Shown: positions 20,721-28,581 of the stretch, piece after piece | How positions within the stretch are numbered: the stretch's first letter is position 1 | Layout: each line of letters starts with the position of its first letter | Source of the DNA: a virus | Virus genome (UHGV): UHGV-0182401 | Direction: 5' to 3' (one strand) | DNA length: 40,878 nt | The notes under the pieces: model-generated | Told to the model about the DNA's origin: nothing | The model's database searches: none | Seen by the model: only the letters and a program-made list of their open reading frames with translations | Translations under genes and position numbers: made by a program

Positions 20721-21881
20721 ATGACGCAGGGCTTACCTGTATCCAACGTTGTAAACGTTGATGTGATCATCTCGCCGAAAGCGGCTACTGGTCGTAACTT
20801 CGGCGCATTGCTAATCCTTGGCTCTTCCACTGTCATTCCGGTGACAGAACGTACTCGCCTATATGCTTCCATTGAGGACATTGGCGAAGACTTCGGTGTC
20901 GACAGCCCGGAATATAAAGCAGCGCAGGTTTTCTTCAGCCAGTCACCGAAGCCGACACAGGTTTATGTTGGTCGCTGGGCGAAGACGCTGAGTTCTTCCG
21001 AGAGTGGAGATACTGAAACTATCGTGCAAGCCGTTAATGCCTGCCTGCAATATACCAACTGGTATGGGCTGGTTGTCGCTGATGATGTTGTCGCTGGTGG
21101 CGATGTGCTTGATGCTGATGACGTGATTGAGGTTGCTAAACTCATCGAAGCGTCCAGCCTGAGCCGCATTTTCGGGGTAACATCTGCTGACGCCGAGATT
21201 ATCAGCACGACTTCGACGACTGATGTTGCGTCGAAATTAAAGGCTGGCAAGTATTCCCGTACCTTTGTTCAGTATTCCACCAGCAGCCCTTATGCGGCTG
21301 TTTCAGCTTTCGGTCGCGCGTTTACTGTCAATTTCAACGGCAGCAATACCACCATTACCCTGAAATTCAAACAGGAACCGAGCGTAACCTACGAAACGCT
21401 GACGGTAGGACAGGCGGCGGCTGTGGATGCGAAGAATGCGAACGTGTTCGTGTACTACGCCAACGACACGGCGATCCTGCAACAGGGCGTCATGGCGAAC
21501 GGTGACTTCTTCGACGAGCGCCACGGGCTCGACTGGTTGCAGAACTACGTTCAGACCAACCTCTATAACCTGCTTTACACCAGCACCACCAAAATTCCGC
21601 AGACTGATGCCGGTGTGACCCGTCTGCTTTCCAACGTTGAACAGTCCATGGATCAGTCCGTCACGAACGGTCTGGTAGCGGCTGGCGTGTGGAATGGTGG
21701 ACCTATCGGACAGCTGAATTCCGGCGATACGCTGACCAAAGGTTATTACGTGTATGCGCAACCTCTTTCAGAACAGGCGCAGGCCGACCGAGAAGCTCGC
21801 AAAGCACCGTTAATTCAGGTGGCCTGTAAGCTGGCTGGCGCAGTTCATTATGCCGATGTGCAGATCAACGTGGTTCGCTAA
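20721..21881 (+). CDS. Putative tail sheath protein
   Basis: 386 aa followed by tube, frameshifted chaperone pair and tape measure, the P2-like order; size close to P2 sheath. Confidence 0.55.
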
Positions 21882-21891
21882 GGAGCGATAA

Positions 21892-22332
21892 ATGGCAACT
21901 TATTCTTTTCTCGATGTAACCGCGTCGCTCACCGGGCCGACCGGCGTTATCGATCTTGGTCAGGGTTCTGCCAACTCTGAGGAAGGTATCACCCAGACCA
22001 TGGGCGGCAACAAGAACACTATGACCATCGGTGCCGATGGCGAAGTGATGCACAGCCTGCACGCCGATAAGTCAGGCACCATTACGGTGACGCTGCTGAA
22101 AACCTCCCCGGTGAACAAGAAGCTGTCTCTGGCGTATAACGCGCAAAGCCAGTCCTCTGCCACCTGGGGCAATAACGTGATCGTCATTCGCAACACGGCA
22201 TCGGGTGATATTTCTACTGCGCGTTCGTGCGCATTCCAGAAACAGCCTGATTTCAATAACGCCAAAGAGGGCGGGACTGTTTCCTGGGTGTTCGACTGCG
22301 GCAAGATTGACCAGCTGCTCGGGGAGTTTTAA
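21892..22332 (+). CDS. Putative tail tube protein
   Basis: 146 aa following the sheath candidate. Confidence 0.55.
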   Translation: MATYSFLDVTASLTGPTGVIDLGQGSANSEEGITQTMGGNKNTMTIGADGEVMHSLHADKSGTITVTLLKTSPVNKKLSLAYNAQSQSSATWGNNVIVIRNTASGDISTARSCAFQKQPDFNNAKEGGTVSWVFDCGKIDQLLGEF

Positions 22333-22335
22333 CGC

Positions 22336-22761
22336 ATGGAATTCGAAATTAAAGGCGTGAAATATCGCACCGCAAAGCTCAGCGTTTTCGAACAGCTGAA
22401 GGTGTCCCGCAAGCTGTTGCCGGTGCTGGCCGGGATGGTTTCTGACTTTCGGAGCGTTCAGGAGAAGATCAGCAGCAAAGACACCGAAGGCGCGATGGCT
22501 ACCATCCTGCCAAAGATTGCCAATGCTGTGTCCGATCTGAGCGATGGCGACGTGGACGCTATCCTGTTCCCCTGCCTTTCCGTTGTTTCACGCGAGCACA
22601 TGAAAGGCTGGGTGCCGGTCTGCCAGCATGGCGAAATGGCGTTTGACGATATCGACCTGCTGACCATGCTGCAACTGGTGGCGCGGGTGGTCGCCGACTC
22701 GCTGGGAAATTTTTTGCAAGGACTCCCTACCAGCGAGACGCCCACCCCGCCAGCGGAATAA
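22336..22761 (+). CDS. Tail assembly chaperone (short form)
   Basis: Between tube and tape measure; slippery heptamer TTTTTTG near its 3-prime end. Confidence 0.6.
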   Translation: MEFEIKGVKYRTAKLSVFEQLKVSRKLLPVLAGMVSDFRSVQEKISSKDTEGAMATILPKIANAVSDLSDGDVDAILFPCLSVVSREHMKGWVPVCQHGEMAFDDIDLLTMLQLVARVVADSLGNFLQGLPTSETPTPPAE

Positions 22762-22949
22762 CCTTCAACAGCCTGCCGGGCGGTGAAGATTTTATTCTTC
22801 GTCCGGCGCTTGCCTTCCAGATTGACCAGAAAGACCTTAACAGCGGTGCGGTAGACCTCTGCCGCATCGCGCTTCTCAATGACTACCTCGACATGCGCGA
22901 GGATAACGACGCCCGGGTAGATAAATGGAGAGCGGCCAATGAGCGGTAA
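22710..22949 (+). other. Programmed -1 frameshift site and extended chaperone reading frame (analogous to P2 E/E+E-prime and lambda G/GT)
   Basis: T-TTT-TTG heptamer at 22710-22716 in frame; the -1 frame stays open for about 75 codons to a stop at 22947-22949. Confidence 0.55.
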
Positions 22950-24954
22950 CGCAGATACGATTAAAGATTTCCTTGTTTCGCTGGGATTCGATATCGATCA
23001 GGCTGGCGCTAATAAGTTTGAAGCCGTGCTGAAAGGCGTTACCGCGAACGTTCTGAAGGTCGGCGCGGTGGTGAAAGGCGCAGCGCTGAGCATTGTCGGA
23101 TTTACCACCCAGATCGCGAATGGTCTGGATAAAATTTACTGGGCATCCCAGCGGACGGGGGCCAGCGTCCAGGGCATCAAAGCGCTGGGCTATGCCGCAT
23201 CGCAAACTGGCGCCAGCGCTGAGTCGGCCATGTCCTCCCTCGAAGGGTTGGCTGGCTTCATGCGTAGCAATCCGGGGGCGGAAGGGTTCCTGAACCGTCT
23301 TGGTGTCCAGACCCGCGATGCCAGCGGAAAGATGCGTGATACTGCTGCCATCTTTACTGGCGTTGGGCAAAAGCTCAACAACATGCCGTATTACCGCGCG
23401 AAGCAATACGCGCAGATGCTCGGCATCGATGAAAACACGCTGATGGCGATGCGCAGAGGGATGGGGCAGCTCAGTTCTGAGTACGCGTTGACGGCAAAGC
23501 GTATTGGTTTTAATGCTGAGTCAGCGGCTAAACAGTCCAATATTTTCATGACCTCCATGCGTAATCTGACGATGACGCTTGGACAGGCGAAAGACAAGAT
23601 TGGCTCTAACCTAGCTGGTGGCCTTGCTGGCAGCATTGATAACTTCCGCAGGCAGATACTCGACAACTGGCCGAAGATTGAAGCGGTCATCACGAAGATC
23701 ATCAAAGGAATTCTCTGGGCAGGTGACGCGATTACCCGCGTGTTATGGCGAACTGGGCAAGCTGTTGAGGGTGTGATCGCCTGGTTCAAAAAGCTGAACC
23801 CAGCCACGCAGCAGCTTATCGCATTGTTCAGTGGGCTGTTGGTTGCATGGCGGCTGCTAAATACCGCTTTCATGTCATCACCCTTGGGCATGATAACGAC
23901 GCTTATTATTGCACTTGGTCTGCTCTTTGATGATTACCAGACGTGGAAAGAAGGTGGCAAAAGCCTGATTGACTGGGGGAAATGGAAGACTGAAATTGAT
24001 CAGGCCGTCAAAATGATTGGTGACCTGAAAAAGACTGTTACGGACCTGACAAAAGCGCTGGCTAAGTTGCTCGGTATTGACCCCAAGTCATGGTCCCTAA
24101 AGTGGGATTTTAGCAACTTCATTTCGCAAATGGGTGAGTTCGGCAAGATGCTGAACATGATCGCCGACCTGCTCAACGCCATTAAAGATGGCCGCTGGGC
24201 TGATGCCGCCAGCATCGGCAAACAGATGCTTAATCAGGGCAGCGAAAATCCGTCAGCGATGCCGATGGTAACAGACAGCGCCAACGGAACCGCCGACTGG
24301 ATTAAAGAGCACTGGGGATTCGATCCTCGCAGCGTGGGCCGAACGGTGCGCGGCTGGTTCGGTGATGATGAGCCTGAACAGCTCGGCCAGTCAGTTAAGC
24401 GGCCACAGCCAACCAAAGCAGGCTCTGAACTGCTGGGATGGATGCAGCCGATGTTTACCAACCTGGAACAGCTCTACCGGCTTCCGGAGGGGTTATTGCG
24501 CAGCGTGGCCATAACGGAATCGGGCGGTAATCAGTTCGCCGTTTCAGGCGCTGGCGCGAAAGGTCTGTTTCAGTTTATGGATGGCACGGCGCGCGACATG
24601 GGCCTGCGTGGCAATGATGTATTCGACCCGGAAAAGTCAGCTCAGGCAGCCGCTAAGTACCTCAGCCAGCTGTTGCGGCAGAACGGCGGAGACCTTAGCA
24701 AAGCACTGGCATCATATAACTGGGGGATCGGGAATGTTAAGCGTTATGGAATGGGGCTAATGCCGCAGGAAACGCGCAACTACATTCCGAAAGTAATGAG
24801 CAATATGCCCACCAGCGCCCCGGTGATTCAGCAGGAAACGAATATTAACATCCACGGTGTTTCCGATCCGCGTGAAGCTGCCCGTTTGACTGTTGACCGT
24901 CAAAAGGGCGTGAATTCACAGTTAACCCAGCAACTCCCCGCAGGACCGAGATAA
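22939..24954 (+). CDS. Tail tape measure protein with C-terminal lytic transglycosylase (SLT) domain
   Basis: 671 aa; ESGGNQFAVSGAGAKGLFQFMDGTARDMG matches the SLT catalytic motif. Confidence 0.75.
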   Translation: MSGNADTIKDFLVSLGFDIDQAGANKFEAVLKGVTANVLKVGAVVKGAALSIVGFTTQIANGLDKIYWASQRTGASVQGIKALGYAASQTGASAESAMSSLEGLAGFMRSNPGAEGFLNRLGVQTRDASGKMRDTAAIFTGVGQKLNNMPYYRAKQYAQMLGIDENTLMAMRRGMGQLSSEYALTAKRIGFNAESAAKQSNIFMTSMRNLTMTLGQAKDKIGSNLAGGLAGSIDNFRRQILDNWPKIEAVITKIIKGILWAGDAITRVLWRTGQAVEGVIAWFKKLNPATQQLIALFSGLLVAWRLLNTAFMSSPLGMITTLIIALGLLFDDYQTWKEGGKSLIDWGKWKTEIDQAVKMIGDLKKTVTDLTKALAKLLGIDPKSWSLKWDFSNFISQMGEFGKMLNMIADLLNAIKDGRWADAASIGKQMLNQGSENPSAMPMVTDSANGTADWIKEHWGFDPRSVGRTVRGWFGDDEPEQLGQSVKRPQPTKAGSELLGWMQPMFTNLEQLYRLPEGLLRSVAITESGGNQFAVSGAGAKGLFQFMDGTARDMGLRGNDVFDPEKSAQAAAKYLSQLLRQNGGDLSKALASYNWGIGNVKRYGMGLMPQETRNYIPKVMSNMPTSAPVIQQETNINIHGVSDPREAARLTVDRQKGVNSQLTQQLPAGPR

Positions 24955-25580
24955 TGGATATTTTATCAGCGATTTTTCGCCAGCAATCCCGGCGAATTGG
25001 CCTGCTGATCCCCAGCGTGGTCGTCTCCGAAAAGCATTCTGATGCGCTCGAAATTACTGAGCATCCGGTGGAGAAGCCAACAACGAATAGCGCGTCGGGT
25101 TTCATCGCCGATCATGCGTATAAGCGTCCCAGCGAAGTCACAATGGAATGCGGCTTTGCTGGTGGCGGTTCGTTGCTGGACTTCATCGATACATCTTCAA
25201 TCGGCCTCAGCGCCGGGCTTAGCCCAAAAGAAACATACCAAAAGCTGCTGGATATGCAGCTTGAGCGCGTGCCATTCGATGTGGTTACCGGGAAGAGGGT
25301 GTACACCAATATGCTGGTGCGTGCCATTGAGGTGACGACCGATAAAACCAGCGAGAACGTGCTGAACTGCACGCTTACCCTGCGTGAAGTCATCATAACG
25401 CATACAAAAAATGTCACCGTTGCTGATAAATCCGATATGCAGGACGGGGTTAGTACATCTGCGGTGCAGAATTCCGGGACTAAATCCACCACCCCAGTAA
25501 ATGAATCGGTAATTAAGTCAACAGGGTGGTTTGATGGACTAAAAGGAACCAGTCTTGGTAACTCTATAGGTATCCAATGA
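24954..25580 (+). CDS. Tail protein (P2 gpU-position)
   Basis: Position after tape measure. Confidence 0.45.
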   Translation: MDILSAIFRQQSRRIGLLIPSVVVSEKHSDALEITEHPVEKPTTNSASGFIADHAYKRPSEVTMECGFAGGGSLLDFIDTSSIGLSAGLSPKETYQKLLDMQLERVPFDVVTGKRVYTNMLVRAIEVTTDKTSENVLNCTLTLREVIITHTKNVTVADKSDMQDGVSTSAVQNSGTKSTTPVNESVIKSTGWFDGLKGTSLGNSIGIQ

Positions 25581-25884: not shown

Positions 25885-26949
25885 ATGTCTCTTAACTGGA
25901 TGCGCCATTTTGAGTTGCAGCTGTTGGACCAGAACGGGCAGGGTATTTCCCTGTCTGATTTTAAGGTCACGTTCCAGATCGAGTGGGCAGATACACGCTG
26001 GCCGCGCGTGGCAAACGTGAAAATTTACAACCTTTCGACCGATACCACGAACAAGATACTGGGGCAGGAATTTGCCAAAATTCGCATCATTGCCGGGTAT
26101 GACGGTATTGCGCCGGATGTTGATGCGAGCCAGGTTGGTGTCGCCCGGGAGATTTCACCAGACCAGGTAGGGCAGGTGAACGGTCAGAACTACGGCCTGA
26201 TATTTGACGGTGATATTCGCTTCACCGTCACCGGGAAGGACAACATCACCGATTCCTGGGTGCTGATTCAGGCCATCAGTAACCACGAAGCGTTCCTCTA
26301 CGCGACTACCATCACCACGCTTGCCGCTGGTTATACCGTTGCGGACCTGCACCGGGCGACTATGCAGGATTTCAACGCGTTCGGCGTGACGCAGGGCATT
26401 ACCGGTGACTTTCCTGATACCGTGTTTCCTCGTGGCCGTGCGATTTATTCATCCACCCGTAACGTGATGGATAATATTGCTGCGCAGTGCAAAGCGACAT
26501 GGCAGCTGGTGGATGGTCAGGTCCAGATGGTGCCGGAGGATAAATATATTCACGAAGCCATTGTGTTGAATGCCGATACTGGCCTGATCGGTATGCCGCA
26601 ACAAACGATGGGCGGCGGAGTAAACGTGCGGTGCCTGATAAACCCAAACATCCGTATTAATGGTCTTATCCAGCTCGATCAGGCTTCGGTGTACCGCGCT
26701 GCGCTCGGCAATAGCGAAATCGCTCAGTCGCCCGGGCGTATCACCGAAACGGAAGAGAACGGCAACCGCGTGCTGACAGGTACGACGTCACAGGCTGCCA
26801 GCATTGCGACAGATGGCGTTTATATCGTCAAAGCTATCGACTATACTGGCGACACCAGAGGTCAGGCGTGGTACATGGATTTGATGTGTTTTGCGCGTGG
26901 GGCTCGCGAGCTTTACAGCCAGAATGCCATGCTGAAAACCAACTATTGA
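25885..26949 (+). CDS. Tail/baseplate hub protein (P2 gpD-position)
   Basis: 354 aa, position. Confidence 0.5.
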   Translation: MSLNWMRHFELQLLDQNGQGISLSDFKVTFQIEWADTRWPRVANVKIYNLSTDTTNKILGQEFAKIRIIAGYDGIAPDVDASQVGVAREISPDQVGQVNGQNYGLIFDGDIRFTVTGKDNITDSWVLIQAISNHEAFLYATTITTLAAGYTVADLHRATMQDFNAFGVTQGITGDFPDTVFPRGRAIYSSTRNVMDNIAAQCKATWQLVDGQVQMVPEDKYIHEAIVLNADTGLIGMPQQTMGGGVNVRCLINPNIRINGLIQLDQASVYRAALGNSEIAQSPGRITETEENGNRVLTGTTSQAASIATDGVYIVKAIDYTGDTRGQAWYMDLMCFARGARELYSQNAMLKTNY

Positions 26950-26959
26950 GGTGAATATT

Positions 26960-27304
26960 GTGAAGCGTGTAGCAGCCGTAATTTTTCTGCTGACTTCGTT
27001 TTTATCCTTGAGTGCATTTGCTGATTCACAATGTGGTAACTACAGGGTGCACTGGGCGGATGATGGGCTTGCAAGAATTAATGGCGCAAAACCAGAAACT
27101 CAAAAAATCACTTTTCTGAAAAAAGAAGGTGATTATAACAATGTAAAATTTGAGTGGGTTGTTGCTACCGATCAACCCGGTCGCTGGGTGGGAATGGAGT
27201 TCATTGGGCGCAACGGAAAAGCCATTCTCAATGTCCAGTGGCTGCAAGCCAGCATGAATGCGCCGCGTCAGTATGCAACATACGACTGCCGAAAAGTAAA
27301 ATAG
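26960..27304 (+). CDS. Small secreted protein with signal peptide (moron candidate)
   Basis: GTG start after GAGGTGA; signal peptide MKRVAAVIFLLTSFLSLSAFA; inserted between baseplate genes. Confidence 0.5.
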   Translation: MKRVAAVIFLLTSFLSLSAFADSQCGNYRVHWADDGLARINGAKPETQKITFLKKEGDYNNVKFEWVVATDQPGRWVGMEFIGRNGKAILNVQWLQASMNAPRQYATYDCRKVK

Positions 27305-27322
27305 CCCGCCAGATAGGCGGGC
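27304..27322 (-). terminator. Hairpin terminator between convergent genes
   Basis: GCCCGCC-AGATA-GGCGGGC perfect 7-bp stem; T-rich on the minus strand downstream of the 27328..27618 gene. Confidence 0.5.
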
Positions 27323-27327
27323 ATGCG

Positions 27328-27618
27328 TCAAAAATATTGAGCTTTAATTATAATAAACACAATAATTACGAACAGGATGTTTCTAATTATTTTTTGCTTA
27401 TGAGTAAGTTGTTTTTTTTCTGTCGATTTCCCGGGAGAGTAAAGGTTAGTGGTATGCGACAGCCCCGTGCCGGGAAGGCCATTTGTCATCTTTACGCCTT
27501 TTTTCCCGATGTTAATGGTGGAACCTTTACCACCAATTGAAGTGCTTACTCCGCTTTTGCTAATGTTGATCGCGAGTCCGGGCGCAATCCGGATTCTTTT
27601 GCGAAATCTAAAGCCCAT
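27328..27618 (-). CDS. DUF4236-like protein with C-terminal transmembrane segment
   Basis: N-terminal MGFRFRKRIRIAPGLAINISKSGVS...GLPGTGLS pattern matches remembered DUF4236; lies in an AT-rich tract. Confidence 0.55.
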   Translation of the reverse strand: MGFRFRKRIRIAPGLAINISKSGVSTSIGGKGSTINIGKKGVKMTNGLPGTGLSHTTNLYSPGKSTEKKQLTHKQKIIRNILFVIIVFIIIKAQYF

Positions 27619-27805
27619 TTGTTACTCCTGTAGTCAAGAATGCGATGGTGCAGGTCCACTCTATGGCGGCTTCATGGCTGAAATTGATTTTTAATGCTTA
27701 CTTGTTGCAAATATATCCTAATACACCTTGTGAATATGTGCCATTGCAGCGGAAAAGCCTTACTTCACACTGATGTAGCTTAGTTACTAAGAGATAATTG
27801 ATACC

Positions 27806-27829
27806 AAACCAGCTTCGGCTGGTTTTTTT
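27806..27829 (+). terminator. Intrinsic terminator just upstream of the baseplate spike gene
   Basis: AAACCAGC-TTCG-GCTGGTTT followed by TTTTT. Confidence 0.5.
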
Positions 27830-27840
27830 ATGGGGTTTTT

Positions 27841-28581
27841 ATGCCAATTCCTACTCAATCACAGATCGGCGGCGAGCAGCAGACCGCGCAGGCCATTGCC
27901 GATTCGGTGTCTACTCAGATGCGCGTAGCGATGCCTGGCATCATTCAGTCGTTCGATCCTGACGCTGTAACCTGCACAGTAGAGGTGGCGCTTCGCGGTA
28001 TTGTTGGCGACGACTCCACCGAATTAAAACCGCTGGTGGATGTGCCTGTCATCTTCCCGCGCGGAGGCGGTTGCACGCTGACCTTTCCGGTAAAAGAAGG
28101 CGATGAGTGCCTGCTGATCTTTGCCGACCGTTGCATCGATTTCTGGTGGCAGAGCGGCGGCGTTCAGGAGACCGTCGACCCGCGCCAGCATGACTTATCT
28201 GATGCGTTCGCCATCGTTGGCCCGCAGTCGCAAGCGCAAAAAATCAGCGGTATCAGTACCAGCGCCGCGCAGCTGCGAACCGATGATGGTGTGGCGTTCG
28301 TAGAGGTTTCCGCAGGACATAACATCACCGTTCAAACACCGGGCCAGCTCACGGCTACGGCTGAAGGTGGAACGACAATCACATCCCCGACTATCACGCT
28401 GAACGGCAACGTAACGATTAATGGCAATCTGTCTCAGGGAATGGGAGAAAGTGGTGGTACTGCGACGATGCTTGGGCCGGTTACGGTAACGAATGATGTG
28501 ACAGCTTCAGGTATAAGTGTCGCCACGCATAAACATGGCGGAGTTCAGACAGGCGGGGGAACTACTGGAGGGCCGCAATAA
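27841..28581 (+). CDS. Baseplate spike protein (P2 gpV-like)
   Basis: 246 aa with glycine-rich C-terminus; followed by W/J/I-like genes in P2 order. Confidence 0.65.
   Translation: MPIPTQSQIGGEQQTAQAIADSVSTQMRVAMPGIIQSFDPDAVTCTVEVALRGIVGDDSTELKPLVDVPVIFPRGGGCTLTFPVKEGDECLLIFADRCIDFWWQSGGVQETVDPRQHDLSDAFAIVGPQSQAQKISGISTSAAQLRTDDGVAFVEVSAGHNITVQTPGQLTATAEGGTTITSPTITLNGNVTINGNLSQGMGESGGTATMLGPVTVTNDVTASGISVATHKHGGVQTGGGTTGGPQ

Follow-up and report, generated by a model that had tools for sequence, protein, structure and literature searches.

Long-tailed double-stranded DNA phages carry counterparts of the −1 ribosomal frameshift that yields lambda gpG and gpGT (Levin 1993; Xu, Hendrix and Duda 2004, 2013, 2014; reviewed in PMC5009743). 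The tail genes of virus genome UHGV-0182401, analysed here as a single stretch of 40,878 nucleotides (hereafter the window), raise the question of whether the tail assembly chaperone gene is decoded in the same manner and, if so, at which nucleotides, with the help of which stimulator and into which product. A sequence-only reading of the locus had recognised in it the chaperone frameshift of long-tailed phages. Gene order, the presence of a DUF6889 domain in the −1 frame, the absence of a start codon for that domain and the conservation of the whole arrangement support this view, as detailed below.

Tail module and overlapping frames

The window is an E. coli prophage. The region considered here is 99.8% identical to E. 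coli strain LR-71-1 (NZ_AP027599) and 99% identical to Citrobacter phage Omnitron. Of 5,426 complete E. coli genomes, 39 or more carry the prophage. It contains a contractile-tail module in which the sheath, tube, chaperone and tape measure genes follow one another, in that order, on the + strand. The tail sheath gene (20721–21881) matches Pfam DUF3383 (E = 8e-103) and phrog_205, 'tail sheath' (E = 5e-130). The tail tube gene (21892–22332), directly 5' of the chaperone, matches Pfam KPP10_Orf10 (E = 6e-60), a family that carries the RefSeq label DUF3277. The zero-frame chaperone ORF (22336–22761) encodes a 'G-like' product of 141 amino acids and matches Pfam Phage_TAC_15 (E = 4.4e-33; score 114.9 against a cut-off of 22 bits) as well as phrog_1688, 'tail assembly chaperone' (E = 3e-57). 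Positions 22939–24954 encode the tape measure protein of 671 amino acids, with matches to phrog_2276, 'tail length tape measure protein' (E = 3e-227), and, in its C-terminal part, to the SLT lytic transglycosylase domain (Pfam SLT, E = 4e-25). The chaperone gene pair is thus placed between the tube gene and the tape measure gene, as in the lambda G/GT type. Sequence searches of the PDB with the chaperone and with the T domain returned no match.

Near its 3' end the chaperone ORF reads, directly, CTG GGA AAT TTT TTG CAA. By this codon reading the T_TTT_TTG heptamer to which attention had first been drawn (22710–22716, + strand) lies in the X_XXY_YYZ phase, 14 zero-frame codons before the stop. 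That heptamer is real and in phase, but it is only the 3' member of a longer slippery run of 13 nt, G_GGA_AAT_TTT_TTG (22704–22716, + strand), in which three in-phase X_XXY_YYZ heptamers, G_GGA_AAT, A_AAT_TTT and T_TTT_TTG, overlap in consecutive codon steps (36 of 38 loci).

The background frequency of such sites was estimated from a crude gene set of the window (52 ORFs, 11,648 codons), which holds 29 in-phase XXXYYYZ heptamers, or about 2.5 per 1000 codons. At 25 of these 29 the −1 extension spans only 0–33 codons and closes well within the gene. Besides the three of the chaperone, a single heptamer, at the end of the tape measure gene, enters a −1 frame that outruns the zero-frame stop. 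This site, A_AAG_GGC (24903–24909), is in phase and would fuse the tape measure protein to the product of the next gene (baseplate); it is absent in Mulock, yong1 and SEN34, and we therefore regard it as a chance occurrence.

Open over 22647–22949, the −1 frame gives 79 sense codons when translated from 22710, 77 of them after the heptamer, in agreement with the length of about 75 codons given by the sequence-only reading, which had also placed its end just past the tape measure start. As the tape measure ATG stands at 22939, within the 3' end of the extension, the −1 frame ends 11 nt into the tape measure ORF, with a TAA at 22947–22949. The extension proper (22713–22949, + strand), a 'T-like' domain of 77–78 codons followed by the TAA, would complete a fusion of 204 amino acids. 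Searched against Pfam, the 79 residues read from the −1 frame hit DUF6889 (E = 1.3e-11; 44.5 bits, curated cut-off 23.9) over approximately 22827–22934; they also match phrog_4364 (E = 3e-17).

Conservation and alternative explanations

Conservation was examined in two data sets. The close set consisted of 37 distinct loci, taken from E. coli, from other genomes of Enterobacterales and from phages, in which chaperone identity goes down to 54%; the codon alignment comprised 31 sequences sharing 64–79% nucleotide identity with the window. The frameshift proposal had been made to depend in part on conservation of the slippery site and of the extended frame in related phages, and both are kept in 36 of the 37 distinct enterobacterial loci. 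The −1 frame is truncated in one locus only (L100, Enterobacter sp. R1(2018)), for which prophage decay or an error of assembly is the probable cause. The 13-mer GGGAAATTTTTTG is found in all but two loci; variants of the run have CGG or TGG at the 5' end (two loci) and TTA at the 3' end (one locus).

Synonymous variation is strongly reduced over the run. GGA, AAT, TTT and TTG are four-, two-, two- and sixfold degenerate, yet the first three never vary and TTG is kept in 30 of 31 sequences. Only eight of the 52 conserved degenerate codon columns in the alignment fall at or below an entropy of 0.25 bits, the median of the other columns being 1.29 bits. These eight frozen columns are codon 2, the adjacent codons CGG and GTG (22684–22689), the four codons of the run (GGA, AAT, TTT, TTG; 22705–22716) and CTC (22723). 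Since the two codons just 5' of the run, TCG and CTG, reach 1.56 and 0.95 bits while the run columns stay at or below 0.25 bits, the synonymous constraint starts at GGA. The zero-frame codons of 22717–22725 are likewise invariant at synonymous sites across the 31 loci.

The extension evolves as a protein-coding sequence. When columns are sorted by −1-frame codon position, their mean entropies are 0.87, 0.82 and 1.38; the third position is the freest, and the stretch thus reads as coding in this frame. Its length is 76–78 aa in 36 of 37 distinct loci. The translations share the core LPGGEDYILRP … G.VDL..IA.MND.L … DN … KWR, and eleven residues are invariant among 26 sequences (P21, P30, G44, D47, L48, A52, N55, D56, N64, W71 and R72). 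The −1 stretch therefore encodes a real, conserved protein domain.

These data bear directly on the suggestion that the −1 ORF is silent, as a coincidence or a relic, and that the heptamer is the chance outcome of encoding Gly-Asn-Phe-Leu. At the heptamer density of the window, about 9% of random 37-codon overlaps would carry an in-phase heptamer, a point in favour of this reading. The −1 frame, however, matches a curated family above threshold, it has kept its length of 76–78 aa and its third-position substitution pattern across sequences at 64–79% nucleotide identity, the run is frozen at synonymous sites, and the frame is broken in L100 alone (1 of 37). The family match and the comparative data together exclude chance or relic status, and we consider this explanation effectively refuted.

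A domain that is translated could still be expressed as a separate small gene, from a non-canonical start or by re-initiation coupled to termination at 22761, with no frameshift involved. Some database records present it in this way: RefSeq annotates a separate 'DUF6889 family protein' in E. coli (PGAP; 64 aa) and several phage records call a separate ORF of 51–59 aa. The start chosen by PGAP lies at 22758 and overlaps the stop of the chaperone ORF in a geometry that could allow coupling, but the codon used is an ATA. In the window the first ATG, GTG or TTG of the −1 frame is codon 60 of 77, no −1-frame ORF of at least 20 aa with one of these three starts exists between 22700 and 22950, and no start position is shared among the 31 loci. 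A search of 5.8 billion proteins with the −1 peptide retrieved 24 short fragments of 46–75 aa (and one 119-aa outlier), whose N-termini are inconsistent and scattered over about 30 codons; gene callers disagree on the N-terminus because there is no conserved canonical start. The same search, word-indexed and hence a limited test, returned no single-frame protein joining the chaperone (TAC) and DUF6889. Moreover, the −1 peptide is conserved from the slippery run onward, 5' of every proposed start and in distant phages too, as F-F/Y-x-R-T/A-P/A-Y. The synonymous invariance of 22717–22725 is expected if both frames are read there, and a separate gene leaves the invariant in-phase slippery run unexplained. 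We therefore rate independent initiation as very improbable.

A more distant set comprised nine phages with chaperone identities of 27–38%, obtained by tblastn against phage records; a locus search with the T-domain alignment had returned close relatives only, and the distant loci were taken from tblastn instead. In all nine the T domain is still in the −1 frame. The −1 frame ends between −8 and +10 nt of the tape measure start in eight of them and at +58 in AbTJ. Seven of the nine have at least one perfect in-phase heptamer, which is a different one in several: G_GGA_AAT plus A_AAT_TTT in Acinetobacter, G_GGT_TTT plus T_TTT_TTC in Ralstonia, C_CCT_TTT in Burkholderia phages Magia and BgManors32, T_TTT_TTT in Providencia and G_GGA_AAT only in Bordetella. 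A perfect heptamer is missing in the other two, where the sites are imperfect (T_TCT_TTT in Burkholderia vB_E192a and G_GAT_TTT in Edwardsiella ZHS). A ..T_TTT site with UUU as A-site codon is found at the homologous position in seven of the nine, and in five it forms a perfect X_XXT_TTT in which X is A, G, C or T. The varying X triplet before a constant T_TTT is the frameshift counterpart of a compensatory change.

The distant relatives also weigh against transcriptional slippage, in which RNA polymerase, on copying the T6 run (22710–22715), would insert a surplus U and thereby bring the DUF6889 frame into phase in part of the mRNAs. Insertion of a single base there would lead to an identical …GNFFAR… protein, and some bacterial and phage genes do rely on slippage of this kind (reviewed in PMC5009743). 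The run of the window, however, has only six T's, and the conserved feature is phase-specific and includes GGA-AAT, 5' of the T run. Productive transcriptional slippage in bacteria usually needs about eight or nine identical bases. In distant relatives the arrangement persists with only four T's (CCCTTTTAT, GGGAAATTTTAT) or with GGGAAATAC; with four T's or none, and with the heptamer rule still obeyed, RNA polymerase slippage is implausible in these phages. For the locus as a whole we consider that slippage by the polymerase has only a slight chance of being the explanation.

From the foregoing we infer, with a probability of roughly 0.88, that −1 ribosomal frameshifting on the slippery run yields a chaperone-DUF6889 fusion. 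Most ribosomes would stop at 22761 and release the 141-aa chaperone. A minority would slip back by one nucleotide on the run and read 77–78 codons in the −1 frame up to the TAA at 22949, giving a predicted 204-aa product made of chaperone residues 1–126 or 1–127 followed by the C-terminal DUF6889 domain. If the shift takes place at A_AAT_TTT, the P-site tRNA-Asn and the A-site tRNA-Phe would re-pair to AAA and UUU, and the flanking heptamers may offer extra chances to slip.

Candidate shift site and stimulator

The choice among the three heptamers has little effect on the protein, as all three sites lead to a 204-aa product. The predicted junction is …LGNFFART… for a shift at G_GGA_AAT or A_AAT_TTT and …LGNFLART… for a shift at T_TTT_TTG, which alone changes residue 127 (Leu for Phe). 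T_TTT_TTG had been put forward as the shift site in the sequence-only reading, but by comparison A_AAT_TTT is the better candidate. With moderate confidence we consider the central heptamer (22707–22713, + strand) to be probably the main shift site, because most distant relatives keep ..T_TTT at this place, five of them as a perfect X_XXT_TTT. This choice agrees with reporter measurements made on other sequences in E. coli, in which the classes H_HH.U_UU.Y and R_RR.U_UU.Y are of high efficiency and A-site codons of the 'heterogeneous' class, UUG and AAU among them, are less shift-prone (Sharma et al., PMC4066793).

T_TTT_TTG would then be a possible additional site, and the conservation of its TTG can also be accounted for by the coding of Phe-Ala in the −1 frame after a shift further upstream. 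The invariant third-position A of GGA is relevant only to A_AAT_TTT or G_GGA_AAT, GGA being a rare choice of Gly codon in E. coli. G_GGA_AAT is dispensable, since two loci lack its first G (CGG and TGG).

As for stimulation, one of the checks proposed at the outset concerned a downstream structure, and none was found in the enterobacterial lineage. The 84 nt that follow the run (22717–22800) fold no better than shuffled sequences (z −0.8). RNAalifold on the 31 loci, from −60 to +93 and from +10 to +99, gave no consensus and no covariation (−0.25 kcal/mol, no compensatory pairs), and Rfam gave no match at E ≤ 1. A stem-loop or pseudoknot located 5–9 nt after the heptamer, of the dnaX / IS911 type, is therefore lacking at this locus. 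A long stem pairing approximately 22676–22705 with 22730–22755, and so enclosing the slip site, was seen in a 201-nt fold (z −1.69); it has no support in the alignment, and we rejected it as a stimulator because a ribosome standing on the run would already have melted its 5' arm.

An upstream element offers a better candidate. The Shine-Dalgarno-like sequence GGGUGGUCG (22685–22693, + strand) forms the strongest duplex with the 16S rRNA 3' end in the whole gene, at −12.2 kcal/mol; the mean over the gene is −2.0 (sd 2.4) and the second-best site reaches −7.4. It ends 10 nt before G_GGA_AAT and 13 nt before A_AAT_TTT, inside the spacing of 6–17 nt that Sharma et al. (PMC4066793) applied to SD-like stimulators. 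A G-rich element of the GGUGGU type is present in 30 of 31 loci, and the codons CGG and GTG that belong to the element show an entropy of about 0.2 bits compared with the median of 1.29. Its anti-SD match, the best in the gene, its spacing, its presence in 30 of 31 loci and its frozen codons make the SD-like element (GGGUGGUC / GGGUGGUCG) a plausible candidate for a 5' stimulator of the dnaX kind. Part of its conservation must operate at the protein level, since the same bases encode a conserved Arg-Val-Val. The likely stimulator of the proposed frameshift would thus be the pairing of GGGUGGUCG with the 3' end of 16S rRNA, as in dnaX, and not a downstream hairpin.

Several distant relatives have a stable hairpin that begins a few nucleotides 3' of the site. 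The downstream fold of the Bordetella phage reaches −27.9 kcal/mol (z −2.6), and folds below those of shuffled sequences were also obtained for Acinetobacter (z −1.7 and −2.1) and Edwardsiella (z −1.7). In the Burkholderia phages BgManors32, vB_E192a and Magia a GGGCUGCU…AGCAGCCC stem can be seen by eye and is paired by RNAfold in the first two, although, with z values of −0.1 to −1.4, the 60-nt folds of these phages do not fall below those of shuffled sequences. Relatives from Bordetella, Burkholderia, Acinetobacter and Edwardsiella combine a single or imperfect heptamer with a downstream hairpin.

A tentative scenario, which we advance as a speculation more apt to fail than to hold, is that in the enterobacterial branch the triple heptamers and an upstream SD-like stimulator have replaced a single heptamer with a 3' hairpin, DUF6889 being a 'T' domain made by frameshifting only. 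If true, this would be a case of natural stimulator swapping, in which additive tandem shift sites set the G:GT ratio.

Relation to known systems and to existing annotation

As in lambda G/GT, two overlapping ORFs separate the major tail or tube gene from the tape measure gene, and an in-phase X_XXY_YYZ heptamer lies near the end of the first. The second ORF occupies the −1 frame, lacks a start and closes where the tape measure gene begins. The first of the heptamers found here, G_GGA_AAT, is a single base apart from the G_GGA_AAG of lambda. Unlike in lambda, there are three overlapping heptamers instead of one and a candidate upstream SD-like stimulator, and the tail is contractile, with sheath and tube genes. 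No sequence similarity to G or T is detectable, the Pfam matches being restricted to Phage_TAC_15 and DUF6889. Tape measure protein is bound in lambda both by gpG and by the G portion of gpGT, and the T domain engages the tail tube protein (PMC5009743). By analogy, the short form and the chaperone part of the putative fusion would coat the tape measure protein and the frameshift-only domain would recruit the tube protein, with neither form present in the virion. Frameshifts of the lambda type yield the fusion at a low and constant ratio, with both forms required for tail assembly and neither found in virions. Unlike those of lambda, the efficiency and the protein roles are here predictions.

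The FETUD tail operon of P2 is closer in tail type, being that of a myovirus with a frameshift between the tube and tape measure genes. The heptamer of the P2 gpE/gpE+E' −1 frameshift is reportedly T_TTT_TTG, an assignment attributed to Christie et al. in 2002, and would thus be shared with the locus described here, where T_TTT_TTG is, unlike in P2, probably secondary to A_AAT_TTT. The chaperone is not a sequence relative of P2 gpE, as Phage_TAC_15 is the only family matched in a Pfam scan at E ≤ 0.01. The efficiency of P2-type frameshifts is two- to threefold above that of lambda (PMC5009743).

With frameshifts of the dnaX / IS911 type the locus shares an element complementary to the anti-SD sequence about 10 nt 5' of the slippery sequence. 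In dnaX this element is combined with A_AAA_AAG and a strong 3' hairpin, whereas here no 3' structure is detectable and the SD role is a proposed one. The arrangement is otherwise a textbook one, as expected for long-tailed phages. For frameshift biology it offers a modest, testable case of three overlapping heptamers and an SD-like element without a 3' structure. What the present analysis adds is the reading of DUF6889 as a T domain made only by frameshifting, the triple run with A_AAT_TTT as its likely shift site, and the SD-like candidate in place of a 3' structure.

In the literature we found no experiment on the fusion protein in this phage or its relatives, and no paper that mentions DUF6889. 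A joined 'tape measure chaperone frameshift product' is already present in GenBank for Klebsiella phage Mulock (MN098327, CPT_Mulock_015) and for Burkholderia phage Magia (NC_070954, PQC04_gp15). Both are database annotations for which a supporting publication was not found, and the announcement of Mulock does not mention a frameshift. These two phages are true homologues with the same gene order, their chaperones being 61% identical (Mulock) and 42% identical over the C-terminal part (Magia) to that of the window. Mulock carries the identical GGGAAATTTTTTG run; Magia has, unlike the triple run found here, C_CCT_TTT and a downstream hairpin.

RefSeq divides the gene into a 'phage tail assembly chaperone' and an ATA-started 'DUF6889 family protein'. 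The frameshift reading would give DUF6889 a role and correct these prophage records, among them the records of the 39 or more complete E. coli genomes (of 5,426) in which the prophage occurs. Other records name the DUF6889 fragment 'lytic transglycosylase' or 'NTP pyrophosphohydrolase'.

RNA structures around the slippery run

In the window, the slip site of the chaperone gene (22336-22761) is the run G_GGA_AAT_TTT_TTG (22704-22716). The homologous sites of different groups of phages are accompanied by different candidate stimulators. Hairpins were found a few nucleotides downstream of the slip site in distant relatives from Bordetella, Edwardsiella, Burkholderia and Acinetobacter (loci L201, L202, L204, L205 and L207-L209), an example from Burkholderia phages being GGGCUGCU…AGCAGCCC. 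The enterobacterial clade lacks such a downstream hairpin but carries an upstream SD-like element (22685-22693), and the two may represent a lineage-specific swap of stimulators. When 201 nt of the window were folded, approximately 22676-22705 paired with approximately 22730-22755 in a long imperfect stem (z −1.69) whose loop holds the slippery run; this stem received no support from the alignment of 31 loci.

The −1 extension: annotation and a broken frame

Public annotations label the −1 extension inconsistently (locus L001, 1923-2114, corresponding to window 22758-22949; records MK416019, MT135176 and OP114732). PGAP calls it a 'DUF6889 family protein' with an ATA start codon, other sources name its fragments 'lytic transglycosylase' or 'NTP pyrophosphohydrolase', and the called lengths range from 46 to 75 aa. 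An early stop in the −1 frame was seen at a single locus, that of Enterobacter sp. R1(2018) (L100, 1815-1994; NZ_RCAA01000019), where the slippery run is intact and the −1 frame ends 37 codons after it. The probable cause is either prophage decay, through an indel, or an assembly error.

The chaperone of Elizabethkingia phage EKP1 (OM284015.1; hits H21 and H61) is 53% identical in protein and 68% in DNA to that of the enterobacterial prophage. The host on record for EKP1 belongs to the Bacteroidota, an unexpected assignment given this closeness.

A second heptamer and a low-GC island

Near the end of the tape-measure gene (22939-24954), an in-phase A_AAG_GGC heptamer occurs at 24903-24909, 14 codons before the stop, and from it the −1 frame continues directly into the adjacent downstream gene, which is Dit-like (24954-25580). 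A shift there would produce a hypothetical tape-measure/baseplate fusion. This fusion was rejected and the heptamer is, judging from sequence comparison, probably due to chance, since phages Mulock, yong1 and SEN34 lack it at the corresponding position.

Further downstream, the baseplate genes are interrupted at 26950-27840 by a low-GC island (41-47% versus approximately 54% in the flanks), which lies between a hub-like gene (25885-26949) and a spike gene with Pfam PF18352 and a GpV Apex motif (27841-28581). It contains two ORFs in opposite orientations. The one on the plus strand (26951-27304) encodes 117 aa, begins with a stretch resembling a signal peptide and has no match in Pfam; the one on the minus strand (27328-27618) is a DUF4236 ORF. 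The island looks like a moron-type insertion.
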